Shown here: piece by piece, positions 53,476-60,847 of the stretch | Numbering within the stretch: the first letter of the stretch is position 1 | Layout: each line of letters opens with the position of its first letter | NCBI GenBank assembly: GCA_963720755.1 | Contig: CAVRGP010000006.1 | Span: forward strand, 220,387-284,386 | DNA from: an uncultured Chloroflexia bacterium | GTDB taxonomy: Bacteria; Chloroflexota; Limnocylindria; Limnocylindrales; CSP1-4 | Length of the DNA: 64,000 bases | Direction: 5' to 3' | Position numbers and translations under genes: made by a program | Notes under the pieces: generated by a model | Database searches by the model: none | What the model was told of the DNA's origin: nothing | The model's input: only the letters and a program-made list of their open reading frames with translations

Positions 53476-53662
53476 GCCGGCCGGGTCAGGCAAGGGGTCG
53501 CAGCTAACCGGGAGGTGAGTGGCCAGCGCCAGGATGGCGCGCATGCCACCTCCCGACTCGACCCTCGATCTGGCTTTCGCGCGGCCCATCCGGACGCCTG
53601 TCGCGGTCGGGCCGGGTCGTCCAGTCGTCGGAACGTTCAGGCAGGGGGCGCCAGGCGACGGG

Positions 53663-56600
53663 ATGAGCGGCTATCCGATCCAACCCACGAAGGTCCAGTC
53701 TCCGCCGCTGCGGGACCAGACCCTCGCCCGCGATCGTCTGCTTGACTGGCTGGCCGCGCGGATCCACGACCGGGTGATCCTCCTGTTGGCGGATGCGGGC
53801 TACGGCAAGACGACTCTGCTCGCCGATTTCTCGCGACGGACCCGCGTCAGAACGCTGTGGTATCGGCTCGATGAGGACGACCGGGACTGGGTCCCGTTCC
53901 TGAGCCACATCGTGGCAGCCGGTCGCGAGCACGACCCCGGGTTCGCCCCGCGGACGACAGCCCTGCTGGGCGACATGGCGCTCGGCGGCCCGACCCGCGA
54001 GGCGGCCACGGACGTGCTCATCCGAGAACTGCCGACCATCTCGGAGCAGGGCGCTGCACTCATCCTCGACGACTTCCACCTTGTCGATGGGTCGGCGGAT
54101 GTCCGGTTCATCGTCAAGGAGCTCATCGCGAGGGCGCCGGAGCGGCTATCGATCATCTTCGCGAGCCGGCGCGCACCGACGATCCCGCTCGCGCAGATGC
54201 GCTCAGCTGGGGAACTTTCGGAACTCCGAACGGACGACCTCCGCTTCGATGTCGCCGAAACCAAGCGCCTGTTCACGGAGACATACGGGCGCGATCTGGA
54301 TGCCGACGTCATCGCTGACGTGGCCGCTCGGACCGAGGGCTGGGCCGCGTCACTCCAACTTGTCCAGGCGGCATTGCGAGATCGGTCACCGGCAGAGACC
54401 CGGCGGTTCGTCCGGAGTCTGTCCGGGGCGGACCAGGAGCTCTACGACTACCTCGCCGAGGAGGTGGTCGGCGATCTTGAGACGGACCTGCAGGACTTCC
54501 TCATGCGGACGTCCATCCTCCAGTTCGTCACCGCAGACCTGGCCGCCGTGGCCGCAGACATCGCACCACCGGAGGTCACCCGGCTCACCGTGGCGGCGGA
54601 GCGGTTGACGCTTCTGAGCCGGCCTCCCCGTTCATCACGCGGTCCGCAGCGATACCACCCACTCGTGCGCCAGTTCCTGGAGGCCCGTCTGCGAACGACC
54701 ATCGGAGATACGGCCATCGCCAACCTGCACCGGCGCGTCGCGGACGCCGCCTCCGAGCATGACTGGCGGACCGCAGCCCACCACTATCGGGAGGCCGGTG
54801 AGTACCACTCGTTGTCGAACACGATCGCCGGCGCGATCCCCGAGATCATGGGAAGTGGCCAGCACGCGATCGCCGCCGATGCCATCGACCGCGTGCCACA
54901 CGAGTCACGCCTGCCGATCCTGGGACTCGTCACTTCGCGGGTCCAGATGCAACGCCGCGACTACGACCCGGCGATCAAGGAGGCGCACGCAATTCTTGAG
55001 ATGGTCCAGCCTGGGTCTCAGGAGAGCGACTACGCACTCCTCAATCTCGTGACCTTCTACCTTCAGGCTGGCCTCGGTCGGCACTCCCTCCCGCTTGCAG
55101 AGCGGCTGCGCCAGACCACGTCGAGTGAGCACTTGAGACTGATAGCAGAGGGCACCGGCTTGATGATCGATGCAACCTTCGAGGGGAGCATTGACGCCAT
55201 GTCGACCCACCTCAAAACGATGGCGCGTCACCAGCAAGACGTCCACCCTCATTACTACGGCGTCACCATGCTCAACCTCGCGCTCACTTCCATGATCCAG
55301 GACGACCCTCAATCGGCCGTCGACGCCGCCGATGCGGCAATCGACGCCCTAGAAAACACCTCGTCGAGCATGGAGTTGTCGGCGGCATTCATGGCGCGCG
55401 GCTATGCGCTGACGCTTCTCGGGCAGCACGACCAAAGTCGACATGCAATCGCACGAGCCGCCGAGTTCGACGAGGTTGAAGCTGCATATGAGAGAGCTGA
55501 CCTTGCGGACAGCTTCATCGAGCCTGAGGCCGCTGCGCCGATGCTGCAAGCACTCGACGCAAGTTCCGATGCGTATGCTCGCCCCTACCACGTGATCCAA
55601 TCGGCCTGGTTCCTGGCTCGCCGCAATAGGTTCAAGGAAGCGCAGTTGGTGCTGGAGCAATCACAGCAAGGGGATGGCGTGCTCATGGGACACGCAACCG
55701 TCCGGCGAGTCACGGCGGCGTACGTGGCGGTGGCTTCAGAATCCAGCGCCGCGCCACGCCTCATCGAGGAAGCTTGGAAGGTTTCAAGAGACCAGGGCGC
55801 GACGCGATGGAGACGCGCCGCAGAACTTCTCAGAGCGGTCTCGGGGTCCACGAGCGACCTCAACTCGACGATCCGGAATGTGGGGTCCGTCTCTCCCTGG
55901 ACTCTGACCCTGCTCGCAGACCTTGTGTCTCGCCGGCTGGACGACATCGACATGCTTGCGATCTCGGCCGTGCAGAGTGCCGCCGCGTTGCATCCTGGCC
56001 GCTGGAGATTTGTCCTCCGACGTCGCGTTTCCGAAACCTCTGCAGAGGGAAGTCTTGCGGCCGCTCGCCTGCTCGAGACGATTGGTCAGAAGCAAGATGT
56101 GCAGCTCCTCCGATCGTTCGCCAGACTTCATCGTAGGCAACCGGGCGTCTCCAATCTGGGTCGGACGCTTGCGCGCCGGCTTGCGGACCCAGTCGTTGTG
56201 GAAGATCAGGGTCGCGTCGCGATGGTTGTGGGTGAGCGGAATATCTCGGGCTCGACCATCCGACGGAAAGTGCTGGCTTTGCTTTGCTTTCTGCTAACGA
56301 GACCCGGACTCTCAAGTACACGAGACCAGGTGCTCGACGCTCTGTGGCCAGACCTTGACCCACCAGACGCCGTCAACTCGCTAAATCAGACTGTGTACTT
56401 CTTGCGACGAGTGATCGAGGAGCGGTATGTCGATGACCTCTCGCCCGGCTACTTGCACCACGACTCGGACCTGATATGGCTTGACCCAGAACTCATCTCG
56501 AGTCGCAGTAACGAATGCAGGATGTTGATACAGGCGTTGCCTGTGGAACCTACGCCTGACCAGGTTGCGACCCTGGTCGAGACGTATCACGGTCGCTTCG

Positions 56601-56908
56601 CCCTCGACTTCGAGTACGAAGAGTGGGCCGCCCCGTACAGAGACTGGCTGCACGCGTCGTATCTCGAGATTGTCGAACGGGCGGTAACACGCGATCTCGA
56701 AACCGGCCACTTTGACCGCGGCATCAAGCTTGCCAGACGCGCGATGGACATCGATCCCGACGCCGACAACATCGAGGTGTCGTTGATCCGCTTGTACCAC
56801 GCCAGCAGCGCACACAACGCGGCAGCCGAGCAGTACGCGCACTACGCCAACTCGGTCCGCGACCAGCTCGGAATCGAACCACCTACCCTCAATTCGTTGT
56901 GGGGATAG
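53663..56908 (+). CDS. Large STAND (MalT-like) ATPase/TPR regulator with C-terminal wHTH and BTAD domains
   Basis: ADAGYGKTT, LILDDFH, TEGWAA, RYHPL; C-terminal ALLCFLL...RDQVLDALWP...NSLNQTVYFLRR and BTAD-like helices ending LGIEP. Confidence 0.85.
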   Translation: MSGYPIQPTKVQSPPLRDQTLARDRLLDWLAARIHDRVILLLADAGYGKTTLLADFSRRTRVRTLWYRLDEDDRDWVPFLSHIVAAGREHDPGFAPRTTALLGDMALGGPTREAATDVLIRELPTISEQGAALILDDFHLVDGSADVRFIVKELIARAPERLSIIFASRRAPTIPLAQMRSAGELSELRTDDLRFDVAETKRLFTETYGRDLDADVIADVAARTEGWAASLQLVQAALRDRSPAETRRFVRSLSGADQELYDYLAEEVVGDLETDLQDFLMRTSILQFVTADLAAVAADIAPPEVTRLTVAAERLTLLSRPPRSSRGPQRYHPLVRQFLEARLRTTIGDTAIANLHRRVADAASEHDWRTAAHHYREAGEYHSLSNTIAGAIPEIMGSGQHAIAADAIDRVPHESRLPILGLVTSRVQMQRRDYDPAIKEAHAILEMVQPGSQESDYALLNLVTFYLQAGLGRHSLPLAERLRQTTSSEHLRLIAEGTGLMIDATFEGSIDAMSTHLKTMARHQQDVHPHYYGVTMLNLALTSMIQDDPQSAVDAADAAIDALENTSSSMELSAAFMARGYALTLLGQHDQSRHAIARAAEFDEVEAAYERADLADSFIEPEAAAPMLQALDASSDAYARPYHVIQSAWFLARRNRFKEAQLVLEQSQQGDGVLMGHATVRRVTAAYVAVASESSAAPRLIEEAWKVSRDQGATRWRRAAELLRAVSGSTSDLNSTIRNVGSVSPWTLTLLADLVSRRLDDIDMLAISAVQSAAALHPGRWRFVLRRRVSETSAEGSLAAARLLETIGQKQDVQLLRSFARLHRRQPGVSNLGRTLARRLADPVVVEDQGRVAMVVGERNISGSTIRRKVLALLCFLLTRPGLSSTRDQVLDALWPDLDPPDAVNSLNQTVYFLRRVIEERYVDDLSPGYLHHDSDLIWLDPELISSRSNECRMLIQALPVEPTPDQVATLVETYHGRFALDFEYEEWAAPYRDWLHASYLEIVERAVTRDLETGHFDRGIKLARRAMDIDPDADNIEVSLIRLYHASSAHNAAAEQYAHYANSVRDQLGIEPPTLNSLWG

Positions 56909-56921
56909 GTAAGGTTGCGTA

Positions 56922-56951
56922 TTGACCGGTTCACTCGCCGGTCCATATAGT
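56922..56951 (+). promoter_or_regulatory. Putative promoter of the riboswitch/peptide/HD-GYP operon
   Basis: TTGACC (56922-56927), 18 nt, TATAGT (56946-56951). Confidence 0.65.
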
Positions 56952-56996
56952 CCCGGGACTTCGTAGTACTCCAGTACTAGGAAGCCAAGTCAATAC

Positions 56997-57068
56997 GCTC
57001 GGACGCGCTGAAGCACCACCTGAAATGGGCACTTGGGGTGGAGCAGAGCGAGTAGTGCAACCGACCGA
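56997..57068 (+). ncRNA. c-di-GMP-II riboswitch
   Basis: TCGGA...TGAAG...GGGCACTTG...GAGC.AGTAGTGCAACCGAC; GCAC/GTGC pseudoknot pair; P1 TCGG/CCGA. Confidence 0.82.
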
Positions 57069-57090
57069 CCACAAGTCAGGTCGGTTTTTG
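57059..57090 (+). terminator. Riboswitch expression-platform terminator
   Basis: AACCGACC-GAC-CACAA-GTC-A-GGTCGGTT-TTT; overlaps the aptamer 3' strand. Confidence 0.78.
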
Positions 57091-57129
57091 TGTTCCTTGG
57101 AACACGAAGGCCGCGAAGGAGGATCGAGC

Positions 57130-57162
57130 GTGAATCCGGAAACGATCAGCAAGGGCTGGTAG
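57130..57162 (+). CDS. Possible 10-aa micro-ORF (MNPETISKGW)
   Basis: AAGGAGG at 57116-57122, 7 nt before GTG. Confidence 0.35.
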   Translation: MNPETISKGW

Positions 57163-57173
57163 AGGGCCTTCCA

Positions 57174-57263
57174 ATGAAGGCCAAGATTTCGCGAATCATG
57201 GTGGCGCTAATAAGTGTCGCTTTGGTCGCGGTGGCTGGCGGAGCGTCATTACGAGGCTTCTAG
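57174..57263 (+). CDS. 29-aa putative signalling-peptide precursor
   Basis: MKAKISRIMVALISVALVAVAGGASLRGF: basic N-region, hydrophobic core, GGA, short polar/aromatic tail; GAGGG upstream. Confidence 0.75.
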   Translation: MKAKISRIMVALISVALVAVAGGASLRGF

Positions 57264-57337
57264 TACGTTTGGATTGATTACCAAGCAGAGCTGTAGGTAA
57301 TACAGTCGTTGCTGATCGTCCACGTACGGGGCAGTAG

Positions 57338-58738
57338 ATGCCGCAATCGCTAAAAGCCTACGTCACGGGAGTCGTGACCCTGAGTGCTCTCGCACTCGTG
57401 GTTGCGACTCTTGTGTTTCCCGCTGGTCCGGGGATCGCGCTTGGCGCCAGCGGACCCGTACCAACCATTTCCGAAATCTGGCTAGGCGTCGCGTTCTGGA
57501 TCGTTCTCACGCTCATTGCATCCGCGTTGCCGGTCAAACTGCCGATGGGCACGCACCAGGCTGTTGCCATGGCACCCCTCATCGCCGCGATGTCGTTGGG
57601 CGGACCGGCCGTCGCTGGATGGGTTGCAGCGCTAGGTTCCACCGAAGCTCGCGAGCTTCGAGGTCGCATCCCTTGGTATGGGTCGCTGGTCAATCATGCC
57701 GGGGCGACACTGCCAGCAATTCTCGGCGGTGTGGTAAGTAGCGTGATCCTGCGGGTCGCCGGACAATCTGGGCGGCAGGACCTTGGGATCGACCTGATCG
57801 CCACACTTGCGGGGTCGGCAGTCCTGCTCGGCTTGAACACTGCTATCGCCGCGGGCGTGCTCGCGTTGAGAACCGAGCAGCCCTTCGCAACCGTGCTCGG
57901 AGGCGACTACCGAGCCACAGCGTTCAACAATCTCGCGCTAGTCCCACTGGGTTGGCTCATGGCGCTCGTGTACTCGACCCTCTGGTGGGCAACACTCCTC
58001 TTCGCCGTACCGCTGTATACGACTCGGATGGCGTCGGTGCGGTTCGTGGAGATGCGCGACATGTTCACGCAGACGATCGGGGCCCTGGCGGCTGCTGTGG
58101 ACAAGCGAGATCCATTCACGGCGGAGCACAGCCGGAACGTGAAGACGATCTCGGTCGATATCGGGCGGGTCATGCGGCTCAGTGACGCGGAGCTGGAAGC
58201 CCTCGAGTGGGGGGGCCTGCTCCACGATATCGGGAAGATCGGCATTCCGGACAACGTCCTCAAGAAGCCTGAGCGCCTGACCCGAGAGGAACGGATGATG
58301 ATGAATGCGCACCCGGTCAAGGGTGCCGAGATCATCGAGCCGGTCGCCAAGTTGGCCGCGGAACTGCCGATCATCCGACACCACCATGAGTGGTACAACG
58401 GCTCGGGCTACCCGGACCGTTTGATCGGCGACGAGATCCCGAAACTGGCCCGCATCCTGCACGTGGCCGACGCCTTCGAGGCGATGACCGCAGCTCGACC
58501 CTATCGCATGACCCCGTTGACCCCGGAGATCGCACTCGCGGAATTGCGCAAGTTCGCCGGCGTGCAGTTCGACCCGGTCGTGGTCGATGCATTCGTCCGG
58601 ACGCGTCACGCCGATGGGGTGGCGGACGCCGGACGCACGCCCGAGCCTCGACAGATCCCGCTGATCGCCCAGGCTGCGGAGCGCATGGCGATGCCCAGCT
58701 CCGGGCCTGCCCCAGGCTCGCCGACCGATCTCGGCTGA
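57338..58738 (+). CDS. Membrane-sensor HD-GYP cyclic-dinucleotide phosphodiesterase
   Basis: About 7 N-terminal TM segments; DPFT..HS, LLHDIGK, HHEWYNGSGYP, VADAFEAMT..RPY, QFDP. Confidence 0.92.
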   Translation: MPQSLKAYVTGVVTLSALALVVATLVFPAGPGIALGASGPVPTISEIWLGVAFWIVLTLIASALPVKLPMGTHQAVAMAPLIAAMSLGGPAVAGWVAALGSTEARELRGRIPWYGSLVNHAGATLPAILGGVVSSVILRVAGQSGRQDLGIDLIATLAGSAVLLGLNTAIAAGVLALRTEQPFATVLGGDYRATAFNNLALVPLGWLMALVYSTLWWATLLFAVPLYTTRMASVRFVEMRDMFTQTIGALAAAVDKRDPFTAEHSRNVKTISVDIGRVMRLSDAELEALEWGGLLHDIGKIGIPDNVLKKPERLTREERMMMNAHPVKGAEIIEPVAKLAAELPIIRHHHEWYNGSGYPDRLIGDEIPKLARILHVADAFEAMTAARPYRMTPLTPEIALAELRKFAGVQFDPVVVDAFVRTRHADGVADAGRTPEPRQIPLIAQAAERMAMPSSGPAPGSPTDLG

Positions 58739-58819: not shown

Positions 58820-60847
58820 ATGCTGATCGGCGGCATCGCGCTCGGGCTGATCCTCGGCCTGCTCGTCGGCGGCAGCATCACGAACCTCGCCTACATCCAC
58901 CTGCGCCGTCTCCGGTTGCTGCTGGTCGCGGTGGCACTCCGGTTGGCGACCGACTACCTGCTCAACGCAGGCTTCCCGATCGTCGAGCAGCTCCGAGTGC
59001 CGCTACTCGCAGCGGCGTACGCCCTGCTCCTGGTCGCGCTATGGGCGAACCGCGGGTACCCGGGCATGAGCCTCGCCTTCATCGGCGTCCTGTCGAATGC
59101 CGTGGTCATCGTGATCAACGGCGGCTACATGCCGATCTACCTGCCCAGCCTGGAACTGGCCGGACTGACCCAGGCTGACATCACGTCGGCCCTCCATTCG
59201 TTCCTTCCCGCAGCCCTCGATGCGAACTTCCTGCTCCACCTTGGCCCGTTCTCGGACGTCATCCCGATCCCCTTCCCGATCGTCCAGAACGTGGCTTCGG
59301 TCGGGGACGCGTTCCTGACCCTCGGCCTGGCGTTCTTCCTGTTCGCGGGTGTCGTTCGGATCCCGCATGAACTCGACGAGGAGCAACTCGCCGCGATCAA
59401 ACGGCGGCTCGCCAACGCGTCTCACTCGCGTCGACCGCGGCGCGCCGGCGATCCGGGCGCCGAAACGGGCCTGTCGCCGGCCTTCGCGGGTGCCGTTGCC
59501 CTGGAACGCCCGCTCATGCTCGGCAGTGCGGGGGCCGGCCTTGCGTCGCCGTCCATGACGTCGTTCGAGAGCGACGCCGCCGCCGTCTTCCCGGAGCCGT
59601 CGGACACGCTCGTCCGGGTCCGCCAGCACCCATACGTTCGGCTCGCCCTCAACGGATCGTTCTCGGCGCTGTGGGCCGGTCAGCTCATCTCGCTGTTCGG
59701 CGATCGACTGAACCAGCTCGCGCTCGTCGCGGTCGTCCTCATCTCGACCGGGTCGACCCTTGCCAGCGGGTTGGTGTTCTTTGCGGCCACGCTCCCGAAC
59801 CTGCTCCTGAGCCCGATCGCCGGGACATTCGTGGACCGATGGGATCGCAAGGAGGTGATGATCGTCAGCGACGTCCTGCGGGCGGCGCTCGTGCTCATCC
59901 TGCCGATCGTCGCCGTATGGAACCTGCTGCTGGTCTACCCGCTCGTCTTCCTGGTCACCAGCATCTCCGTGTTCTTTCGGCCCGCTCGGGTGGCCATCCT
60001 GCCGCGGGTCGTGCCCGAGGAGGACCTGCTCAGCGCGAACTCCGCGCTGTGGGTCGGCGAGACCATCGCCGATATCGTGGGGTACCCCCTGGCCGCAGCG
60101 TTCGTGGCCGTCCTCGGTTCCTCCGTGCCGCTTGCGTTCTGGGTCGATGCAGCGACGTATCTGGCCTCAGCAGCCCTGATCAGCACGATCGTCCTGCACG
60201 CAGCGCCCGCGAGCGACGTCGAGACCGGTACGGGTGCGGGGTTCCTCGCGGAGATGGCTGCCGGCTGGCAGTTCCTGCGGCACGAAACCGTGCTGCTCGC
60301 GAACACACTCCAAGGTGTGGCCGGCCAGTTCAGCCTCGGGATCACGATCGCCCTGACGCCGGCCTTCGTCGAGGTCGCCTTCGCCGACTCCGGATATCGA
60401 TGGCAGGCGGTCTACGGATTCCTCGAGGCGGGGATCGGGCTCGGAAACCTCGTCGGTGGATTCATCATCGGACTCCTCGGCACGCGCTTCGCGAAGGGTC
60501 GGATGGTGATCATCGGGTACACCGCCTGGGGCCTCTCCATCTTCCTGTTCGCCTTGTCGGGCAATGTGGCGGTCGCCCTCGGACTCGCGTTCGGCCAGGG
60601 TGTCGCGAACATGATCTTCATCATCCCGAGCCAGACCCTGTTCCAGGAGCGCACGCCGGCCGCGCTGATGGGTCGCGTCGTCGGGTTCCGGTTCGCGCTC
60701 GTGTTCGGTTCGATGACCTTCGCGATGGCGATCGGCGCCATCTTCGGGCAGATCGTCGGAGCGGCGCCGGTCATGGCGGTCTTCGGGCTGGTGACCGTCG
60801 CGGCTGGGCTCGCCGGGATGCTCGTCCCGGCGGTTCGTGATGCCTGA
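58820..60847 (+). CDS. DUF5317-like membrane domain fused to an MFS transporter
   Basis: N-terminal SNAVVIVINGGYMP...DVIP...SVGD; linker; then F.ALW.GQLIS.FGD, AGTFVDRWDRK and MGRV of a 12-TM MFS. Confidence 0.82.
   Translation: MLIGGIALGLILGLLVGGSITNLAYIHLRRLRLLLVAVALRLATDYLLNAGFPIVEQLRVPLLAAAYALLLVALWANRGYPGMSLAFIGVLSNAVVIVINGGYMPIYLPSLELAGLTQADITSALHSFLPAALDANFLLHLGPFSDVIPIPFPIVQNVASVGDAFLTLGLAFFLFAGVVRIPHELDEEQLAAIKRRLANASHSRRPRRAGDPGAETGLSPAFAGAVALERPLMLGSAGAGLASPSMTSFESDAAAVFPEPSDTLVRVRQHPYVRLALNGSFSALWAGQLISLFGDRLNQLALVAVVLISTGSTLASGLVFFAATLPNLLLSPIAGTFVDRWDRKEVMIVSDVLRAALVLILPIVAVWNLLLVYPLVFLVTSISVFFRPARVAILPRVVPEEDLLSANSALWVGETIADIVGYPLAAAFVAVLGSSVPLAFWVDAATYLASAALISTIVLHAAPASDVETGTGAGFLAEMAAGWQFLRHETVLLANTLQGVAGQFSLGITIALTPAFVEVAFADSGYRWQAVYGFLEAGIGLGNLVGGFIIGLLGTRFAKGRMVIIGYTAWGLSIFLFALSGNVAVALGLAFGQGVANMIFIIPSQTLFQERTPAALMGRVVGFRFALVFGSMTFAMAIGAIFGQIVGAAPVMAVFGLVTVAAGLAGMLVPAVRDA

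Follow-up and report, generated by a model that had tools for sequence, protein, structure and literature searches.

Organization of the locus

The window analysed here, a stretch of 64,000 nucleotides from an uncultured Chloroflexia bacterium, contains a 29-codon ORF (sORF2) between a c-di-GMP-II riboswitch and a gene for an HD-GYP c-di-GMP phosphodiesterase (Table 1). The position, strand, and length of sORF2 are exactly those given in the original prediction. A distance of 99 nt separates it from the riboswitch end (57075), and 75 nt separate it from the HD-GYP gene. Its description as the first substantial ORF after the riboswitch has to be amended: the riboswitch upstream was confirmed, but a conserved 10-codon ORF (uORF1) precedes sORF2. 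The order of the module, namely a BTAD regulator, a promoter, the riboswitch with its terminator, uORF1, sORF2, a membrane HD-GYP protein, and a DUF5317-MFS protein, is kept. The gene context was sampled at 12 longer loci from other genera and from a second family.

Table 1. Positions in the window of sORF2 and of the features around it
Feature	Positions	Strand	Description
Large regulator gene	53519..56908	+	AAA/STAND-type ATPase, weak TPR, OmpR-type wHTH, C-terminal BTAD
P1, promoter-like site	56922..56951	+	TTGACC, 18 nt, TATAGT; 10/12 matches in consensus scan
Inverted repeat	56964..56979	+	TAGTAC-N4-GTACTA, between P1 and riboswitch
c-di-GMP-II riboswitch aptamer	56992..57075	+	RF01786, 65.6 bits, E 1.2e-13
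Terminator-like hairpin and T run	57063..57091	+	8-pair stem, 5 G-C
uORF1	57130..57162	+	10-codon ORF, GTG start, VNPETISKGW then stop; Shine-Dalgarno GGAGG at 57118-57122
sORF2	57174..57263	+	29-codon ORF, ATG 57174-57176 to TAG 57261-57263; product MKAKISRIMVALISVALVAVAGGASLRGF
P2, candidate internal promoter	57278..57306	+	TTACCA, 17 nt, TACAGT, before HD-GYP gene
HD-GYP c-di-GMP phosphodiesterase gene	57338..58738	+	HD_5, E 5.7e-39
DUF5317-MFS fusion gene	58820..60847	+	DUF5317, E 1.9e-24; MFS_3, E 3.3e-17 (MFS_3/MFS_1 transporter)

The regulator ORF comprises 1129 codons, with some uncertainty in its start codon, and its Pfam matches are BTAD (E 5.7e-10), Trans_reg_C (4.2e-5), AAA_22 (4.9e-4), and a weak TPR_2 (0.006). 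An ORF with a BTAD or Trans_reg_C match lies upstream on the same strand in 10 of the 12 context loci. An HD_5 domain is encoded downstream of sORF2 in 11 of the 12, and DUF5317 is fused to MFS in 11 of the 12. The N-terminal part of the HD-GYP protein is a hydrophobic domain of about 240 residues, which is MASE9-like in relatives, and the motif HHExxNGSGYP is invariant in 40 HD-GYP orthologues. The MASE9 profile (PF20972) matched the N-terminal part in four of 12 orthologues with 29–40 bits (cut-off 24.3; E 4e-10 to 9e-7). The HD-GYP protein of the window itself gave no MASE9 match at E ≤0.01, nor was one found in the profile search of the genome. According to a preprint by Galperin and Chou (bioRxiv 10.1101/2021.11.05.467447), MASE9 is a membrane sensor with an unknown ligand, which the authors propose is probably bound within the membrane. 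Both DUF5317 and MASE9 matched in the same two of 14 control genomes, those of Thermus thermophilus and Thermotoga maritima. The structural model of the DUF5317 domain (58820–59389; pLDDT 95.3) consists of five helices and a small beta sheet. Foldseek gave no match to this model at E ≤0.001, and VIA-align gave generic helical matches only (Z ≤8.5). The idea that DUF5317 is a two-Asp intramembrane protease was dropped, as only one Asp is conserved at 90% or more. We found no published work on DUF5317 or on c-di-GMP in Limnocylindria, and no titles or abstracts dealing with a small membrane protein with HD-GYP that matches this module.

In the leader, both hexamers of P1 are conserved in an alignment of 16 loci, and P1 presumably acts as a promoter. 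The GTACTAG of the inverted repeat is invariant in all 16 loci. The sORF2 stop codon lies within a third TAGTAC (57261–57266, forward strand), which is kept across the genus. The TAGTAC repeats may be operator half-sites, or they may pair in the RNA to form a 5' hairpin. The riboswitch aptamer matches RF01786 over its full length (model positions 1–84 of 84; gathering cut-off 53.5 bits) and is the sole c-di-GMP-II riboswitch in this genome. The 3' part of the aptamer contains the 5' arm of the terminator-like hairpin, which is kept in the 16-locus alignment. From this overlap we infer that the hairpin is the expression platform and that the riboswitch follows ON-switch logic. In genus g5, four loci (L198 and L209–L211) have an aptamer-like leader sequence below the Rfam threshold and keep both micro-ORFs; no RF01786 match at E ≤0.001 was found in the two genomes of this genus that were searched. 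Five more sub-threshold c-di-GMP-II-like matches, of 34–41 bits, occur in one related genome (G128, contigs C13, C67, and C99). One metatranscriptome contained 5% of the sampled words, and its contigs, mostly from relatives, cover the aptamer only (56995–57087).

The candidate promoter P2 was not called by the consensus promoter scan of the window. A TAnnnT word is present 39–42 or 56–60 nt after the sORF2 stop codon in 99 of 113 loci among the matches listed in the pattern scan described below (TAGAGT in 66, TACAGT in 16, and other forms in 17). This near-fixed distance suggests that the word belongs to an internal promoter of the HD-GYP gene. If P2 is real, uORF1 and sORF2 would be the genes that depend most strictly on the riboswitch. 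In the window, the sORF2 start could be hidden in a hairpin (GGCCUUC-CAAU-GAAGGCC). This arrangement is not general: start regions from 83 loci are less paired than shuffled sequences (unpaired 0.51 versus 0.43).

The sORF2 peptide of the window has three basic residues among the first seven, a hydrophobic run at residues 8–21, and then GGA and a five-residue tail, SLRGF. The arrangement of n-, h-, and c-regions that had been predicted is thereby confirmed, and it fits a signal peptide or a membrane anchor. Among the matches listed, the net charge of residues 1–8 averages +2.5 over 71 distinct 29-residue peptides, and Pro is seen in one of the 71. Cys is absent from the window peptide and from all 71 relatives among the matches listed; there is consequently no lipobox, and a bacterial lipoprotein is ruled out, in agreement with the original prediction. 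R7 and R/K27 bracket 19 residues that are mostly hydrophobic or small, as in a single membrane helix, and the mean hydropathy is above zero at 16 of the 19 positions from 8 to 26, the exceptions being positions 13, 22, and 23. The residues also agree with the rule for signal peptides (K2, R/K4, and R7; hydrophobic residues 8–21; G22 at –3 and A24 at –1), which indicates compatibility only. G22 and A24 are invariant in 40 aligned sORF2 sequences and are kept in divergent genera too. The GC3 of sORF2 is 0.62, compared to 0.77 in long ORFs, and codons rare in the genome, such as TTA, CTA, ATA, TCA, and AGT, are abundant.

Searches with the Pfam-A and NCBIfam profiles found no named family for the sORF2 product of the window. 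No credible Pfam or NCBIfam match was obtained for 40 members either, the best E value being 0.0013 (one member, halo_sig_pep), followed by 0.04. The original prediction held that the ORF had likely been missed by annotation. This is true of the exact peptide of the window, which is absent from a collection of 15 billion proteins, but not of all its relatives: three of ten variants looked up are present in the collection, as 'hypothetical protein' or unnamed. Residues 37–76 of a 76-residue in-frame ORF had no homologue among proteins of 30–40 residues, a range outside which the 29-residue family falls.

Conservation and distribution of sORF2

Loci were fetched around HD-GYP relatives in 40 related genomes, and 30 loci were searched with the sORF2 peptide. 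The same-genus set consists of 16 distinct places that include the sequence preceding the orthologous HD-GYP gene. Eleven other loci comprise four cut by contig ends, one with a run of N (L009), and six paralogous HD-domain loci (39–46% identity), in which no sORF2 was found. An apparent loss of sORF2 at L009, in the same-genus genome G023, was discarded, as the run of N begins just after the uORF1 start and there is no deletion. This small-ORF search, which had been proposed as a check on the original prediction, found an intact 29-codon sORF2 with an ATG start in 13 of the 16 same-genus loci. The intact copies end in AGGASLRGF directly before the stop codon, except for one that ends in AGGAAIKGW. 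In the other three loci (L005, L014, and L019) the frame is broken and the C-terminal part is present. In these assemblies the adjacent HD-GYP gene also has internal stops, and the frame breaks are therefore likely due to assembly errors. The original prediction was to fail if the ORF proved absent or interrupted in close relatives with the HD-GYP/DUF5317 pair. Among 23 loci located through the HD-GYP gene or through the leader, 18 are intact, none lacks the ORF, and five are broken or startless, so that for the most part this refutation does not hold. The five are four frame-broken loci, all in assemblies whose HD-GYP gene also has internal stops, and one locus (G217) in which no sORF2 start codon was seen and the HD-GYP gene has no internal stops.

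Substitution patterns were examined in 24 family-level sORF2 sequences from several genera, all of which are 29 codons long. The entropies at codon positions 1, 2, and 3 are 0.80, 0.46, and 1.42, respectively. The substitution-rate check that accompanied the original prediction came out in favour of a coding sequence: reading in the sORF2 frame gives a pN/pS of 0.41, and the two shifted frames give 1.12 and 1.70; the last 16 codons alone give 0.25. Each of the invariant residues A21, G22, G23, and A24 is encoded by all four synonymous codons within the set, and the basic residue 27 is written with six different codons, indicating that selection acts on the protein. Conservation climbs toward the C-terminus; in the main group, positions 12–20 have entropies of 0.25–1.5 bits and AGGA is invariant. 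No conserved helical face was found in the core (100-degree moment, permutation p 0.19 and 0.51). An apparent bias toward GGC and TTC in the last two codons was set aside, as it is the genome's own preference (GGC 48.5%, TTC 94.6%).

These patterns bear on the notion that sORF2 is a chance open frame within a conserved RNA leader and no gene at all. The region is low in G+C (0.54–0.57 versus 0.685 genome-wide), it is predicted to be structured (z –4.4), and GC3 is lower in sORF2 than in long ORFs, as such a frame might be, but the codon-position pattern and the frame-specific pN/pS speak for coding, synonymous codons are fully used at the invariant residues, and the length and stop position are kept, which makes a chance frame hardly credible. 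On the strength of these sequence comparisons, sORF2 is a genuine conserved protein-coding gene.

A profile built from 13 sORF2 peptides and searched in 401 genomes of the phylum gave clear matches only in the family of the window. Weaker matches came from a second family within the class; all 17 loci inspected carry the ending ALAGGAS(L/F)(K/R)x(W/F) before the stop, and a riboswitch at gathering score lies upstream in 14 of these 17. Profile matches outside the class (E 0.002–0.1, one of them in G309) lie within long open frames and were rejected as chance-like. Genera that the profile missed still carry the sORF2 module (G128, G226, G400, G276, G208, and G424), with divergent endings such as AGGASLKGL (G128), GGGAGVRPF (G226), and AGGAGVHLL (G400, where the frame is broken). 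In genus g5, represented by three genomes, sORF2 has 28–29 codons and ends in SYRPF or GYGLF. The tails of distant genera thus differ from one another (SLRGF, TLKGF, SYRPF, GVRPF, and SFKGW).

In addition, one genome per bacterial or archaeal species was scanned with a degenerate DNA pattern that encodes the final ten residues followed by a stop codon. The scan found at least 120 stretches, and in 113 among the matches listed the signature word of the riboswitch occurs no more than 400 nt upstream. A start codon with a basic N-terminus is present in 98 of these 113 loci among the matches listed, 77 of the 98 ORFs being exactly 29 residues long, and no recognisable sORF2 start is present in the other 15. 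As the last ten residues are fixed by the pattern, only positions 1–19 are free evidence in this set. The matches listed belong to Chloroflexota, many of them to Candidatus Limnocylindrales, and many soil and freshwater members of the phylum carry the two ORFs. The genome of the window has a single sORF2 copy, and no copy away from a riboswitch leader was found in the genomes searched or among the pattern-scan matches listed. We conclude that sORF2 is a real, unnamed, and class-wide gene.

uORF1 and the ending that it shares with sORF2

The GTG start of uORF1 lies seven bases 3' of GGAGGA. uORF1 is present in all 16 same-genus loci; in one of them (L006) its frame is shifted and runs into sORF2. 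Among the matches listed, it was found in 92 of the 113 scan loci by criteria that demanded a Shine-Dalgarno-like word, and the full GGAGG that precedes 88 of the 92 copies is therefore in part a product of selection. Ninety of the 92 copies have 9–10 codons, and all 92 end in K-(G/A/S)-(W/F/Y); the middle of the peptide is variable among the matches listed, and conservation is concentrated at the C-terminus. The distance from the aptamer to the uORF1 start is 66–82 nt, mostly 71–76 nt, and the gap between the uORF1 stop and sORF2 is 2–33 nt with no preferred frame (both among the matches listed). Read-through of the TAG codon that would fuse uORF1 to sORF2 is unlikely, given that the gap lengths show no frame preference among these matches. 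uORF1 has no hydrophobic segment or export signal. In-frame tandem duplications of an 8-codon uORF1 unit occur in two same-genus loci (L005 and L014) and in one locus of genus g5 (L209), and each duplicated unit ends in the K/R-x-W motif.

Both ORFs finish with a basic residue, Gly (or Pro), and an aromatic residue; in the window, uORF1 ends in KGW and sORF2 in RGF, each followed by TAG. Among the matches listed, TAG is the stop codon of 82 of 92 uORF1 copies and 89 of 113 sORF2 copies, compared to 22% of 1424 filtered ORFs of the genome; as the loci are related, this difference is purely descriptive. In some lineages the endings of uORF1 and sORF2 drift together (KGF/KGF, KGW/KGW, and RPW/RPF). 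TAG is not essential, since genus g5 mostly uses TGA (five of the six stops read).

Possible roles of the sORF2 product and comparison with known systems

Our leading interpretation, which we hold tentatively, is that sORF2 encodes a micro-protein that spans the membrane once, is induced by c-di-GMP, and acts upon the membrane proteins of the operon. At high c-di-GMP, the aptamer would hold the 5' arm of the terminator, so that transcription would read through. The strongly initiated 10-codon uORF1 would then be translated, and ribosomes would go 2–33 nt further into sORF2. The product may enter the membrane as a single helix with the basic N-terminus inside and the C-terminal tail of about five residues outside, where it could, in the manner of KdpF, AcrZ, or MgtR, bind to or modulate either the HD-GYP protein, through its MASE9-like sensor domain, or the DUF5317-MFS protein. 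We infer the translation, the membrane insertion, the topology, the coupling to uORF1, and the binding partner from the features described above.

Several findings weigh against a membrane partner. The gradient of conservation toward the C-terminus would be just as expected of a cleaved precursor or of a nascent-chain element, and a signal-peptidase site could account for the invariant small residues G22 and A24. uORF1, which is without a hydrophobic segment, shares the ending and the preference for TAG, and a membrane partner leaves this unexplained. In addition, the N-terminal part of the HD-GYP protein in the window is below the MASE9 profile, the frame is broken in three of 16 same-genus loci, and 15 of 113 loci are startless among the matches listed. 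Because of the C-terminal gradient, the small residues at –3 and –1, and the shared ending, we keep two rivals, an exported pentapeptide and a pair of cis-acting leader peptides.

The first rival develops the pheromone precursor of the original prediction. Residues 1–24 would be a Sec-type signal peptide cut after AGGA, freeing the extracellular pentapeptide SLRGF as a signal that the HD-GYP protein would perceive through its membrane domain, or that would be re-imported to act on the BTAD/AAA regulator. This fits the n/h/c layout and the small residues at –3 and –1 that are kept in divergent genera (GGGA-GVRPF, AGGA-SYRPF, and TAGA-SYRPF). It also fits a tail that differs among distant genera and is fixed within each, a transporter of the MFS 'secretion effector' type in the operon, and, as the conserved upstream neighbour, a large regulator whose TPR match is weak. 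However, the core is strongly conserved from about residue 12, beyond what a signal peptide needs, and the tail together with at least ten preceding hydrophobic residues is near-constant over many genera, unlike diversifying pherotypes. Export does not explain why the cytoplasmic-type uORF1 decapeptide ends alike, and the TPR match of the regulator is weak (E 0.006). A pheromone precursor is thus possible but not favoured, and we consider the exported pentapeptide unlikely.

An alternative that we regard as equally unlikely is that uORF1 and sORF2 matter mainly by being translated. Ribosomes would pause or terminate slowly at the shared ending of a basic residue, Gly or Pro, an aromatic residue, and a stop codon, and the pausing would shield the leader from Rho, feed the next cistron, or both, so as to tune HD-GYP expression after the riboswitch. 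In favour of this, two otherwise unrelated ORFs have their last three residues and mostly one stop codon in common, and their endings drift together in some lineages. Both ORFs are most conserved at the C-terminus, the part near the peptidyl-transferase centre, and among the matches listed uORF1 has GGAGG in 88 of 92 copies, a near-fixed distance to the aptamer, and a short gap of 2–33 nt to sORF2. On the other hand, pausing leaves the basic N-terminus, the membrane-type core, and the fixed length of 29 residues of sORF2 unexplained, and the six codons used for residue 27 point to selection on the protein. The predominance of TGA in genus g5, the lack of a preferred frame in the gap between the two ORFs (among the matches listed), a sORF2 start no more structured than shuffled sequences at 83 loci, and the candidate promoter between sORF2 and the HD-GYP gene also speak against it.

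It is less probable still, in our estimate, that the riboswitch gates two peptides made at high c-di-GMP, a cytoplasmic decapeptide and a membrane-targeted or exported 29-mer, with a single reader recognizing their common ending. A peptide-binding site in the HD-GYP membrane sensor, in the DUF5317-MFS protein, or in the AAA/BTAD regulator could play this role, and an intracellular second messenger would then be linked to peptide signalling. The reader may instead be the ribosome with a release factor, in which case the two ORFs would form a previously undescribed termination-pausing pair. A type I toxin-like membrane peptide of the Hok/TisB kind, produced when c-di-GMP is high and coupled in translation to uORF1, is very improbable: its size and hydrophobicity resemble those of TisB (29 residues) and uORF1 could play the part of mok, but type I toxins are patchy and often multi-copy, whereas sORF2 is single-copy with a fixed place in an operon conserved across two families, and the opposite strand of the window showed neither an antisense RNA nor a promoter.

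The membrane micro-protein that we favour would be a concrete candidate partner for the MASE9-like sensor and for DUF5317, as it is conserved class-wide, would be made only when the riboswitch opens, and is encoded directly before both. DUF5317 has no assigned function or fold relative, and c-di-GMP enzymes carry membrane sensor domains, MASE9 among them, for which no ligands are known. The locus also shows that two conserved protein-coding genes skipped by standard annotation can lie concealed in the leader of a riboswitch, and the ending shared by uORF1 and sORF2 poses a tractable question on peptide recognition or translation termination.

Receptor-plus-propeptide cassettes are known from Rap-Phr and PlcR-PapR, and the large regulator beside sORF2 is reminiscent of them. 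Like the secreted Gram-positive signalling propeptides of the Phr, PapR, NprX, and SHP kinds, the sORF2 product is short, begins with basic residues, continues with a hydrophobic core, and has 5–7 conserved C-terminal residues, and like the Phr-type genes, sORF2 adjoins the gene of a large regulator that is read in the same direction. The Phr, PapR, and NprX precursors are longer than 29 residues. Unlike the Phr type, sORF2 has a tail and core conserved class-wide, and its neighbour is a BTAD/wHTH protein of AAA type and no RRNPP receptor.

TnaC and SpeFL are encoded by short leader ORFs that stall ribosomes at their stop codon. uORF1 and sORF2 share with these a place in the 5' leader, C-terminal conservation, a preferred stop codon, and a basic residue that precedes the stop by two or three positions. 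They differ in that the leader contains a riboswitch and an intrinsic terminator, that sORF2 is membrane-like, and that two ORFs carry one motif. The leader itself resembles those of other RF01786 operons, scoring above the gathering cut-off and having a terminator that overlaps the 3' side of the aptamer. In the literature on c-di-GMP-II riboswitches and small proteins, we found no description of conserved micro-ORFs between the riboswitch and the gene.

KdpF (29 residues), CydX, AcrZ, MgtR, MgtS, and PmrR are small proteins with a single helix whose genes lie next to that of a larger partner in the membrane, and such small membrane proteins are often missed by gene callers. sORF2 differs from the KdpF/AcrZ kind in its location within a riboswitch leader, where another micro-ORF that ends alike precedes it, and in bearing no sequence relation to named families (0 of 40 members), its partner being only a proposed one. 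It resembles this kind in its length of about 30 residues, its single hydrophobic helix, its positively charged N-terminus, and its place in an operon with multi-pass membrane proteins.
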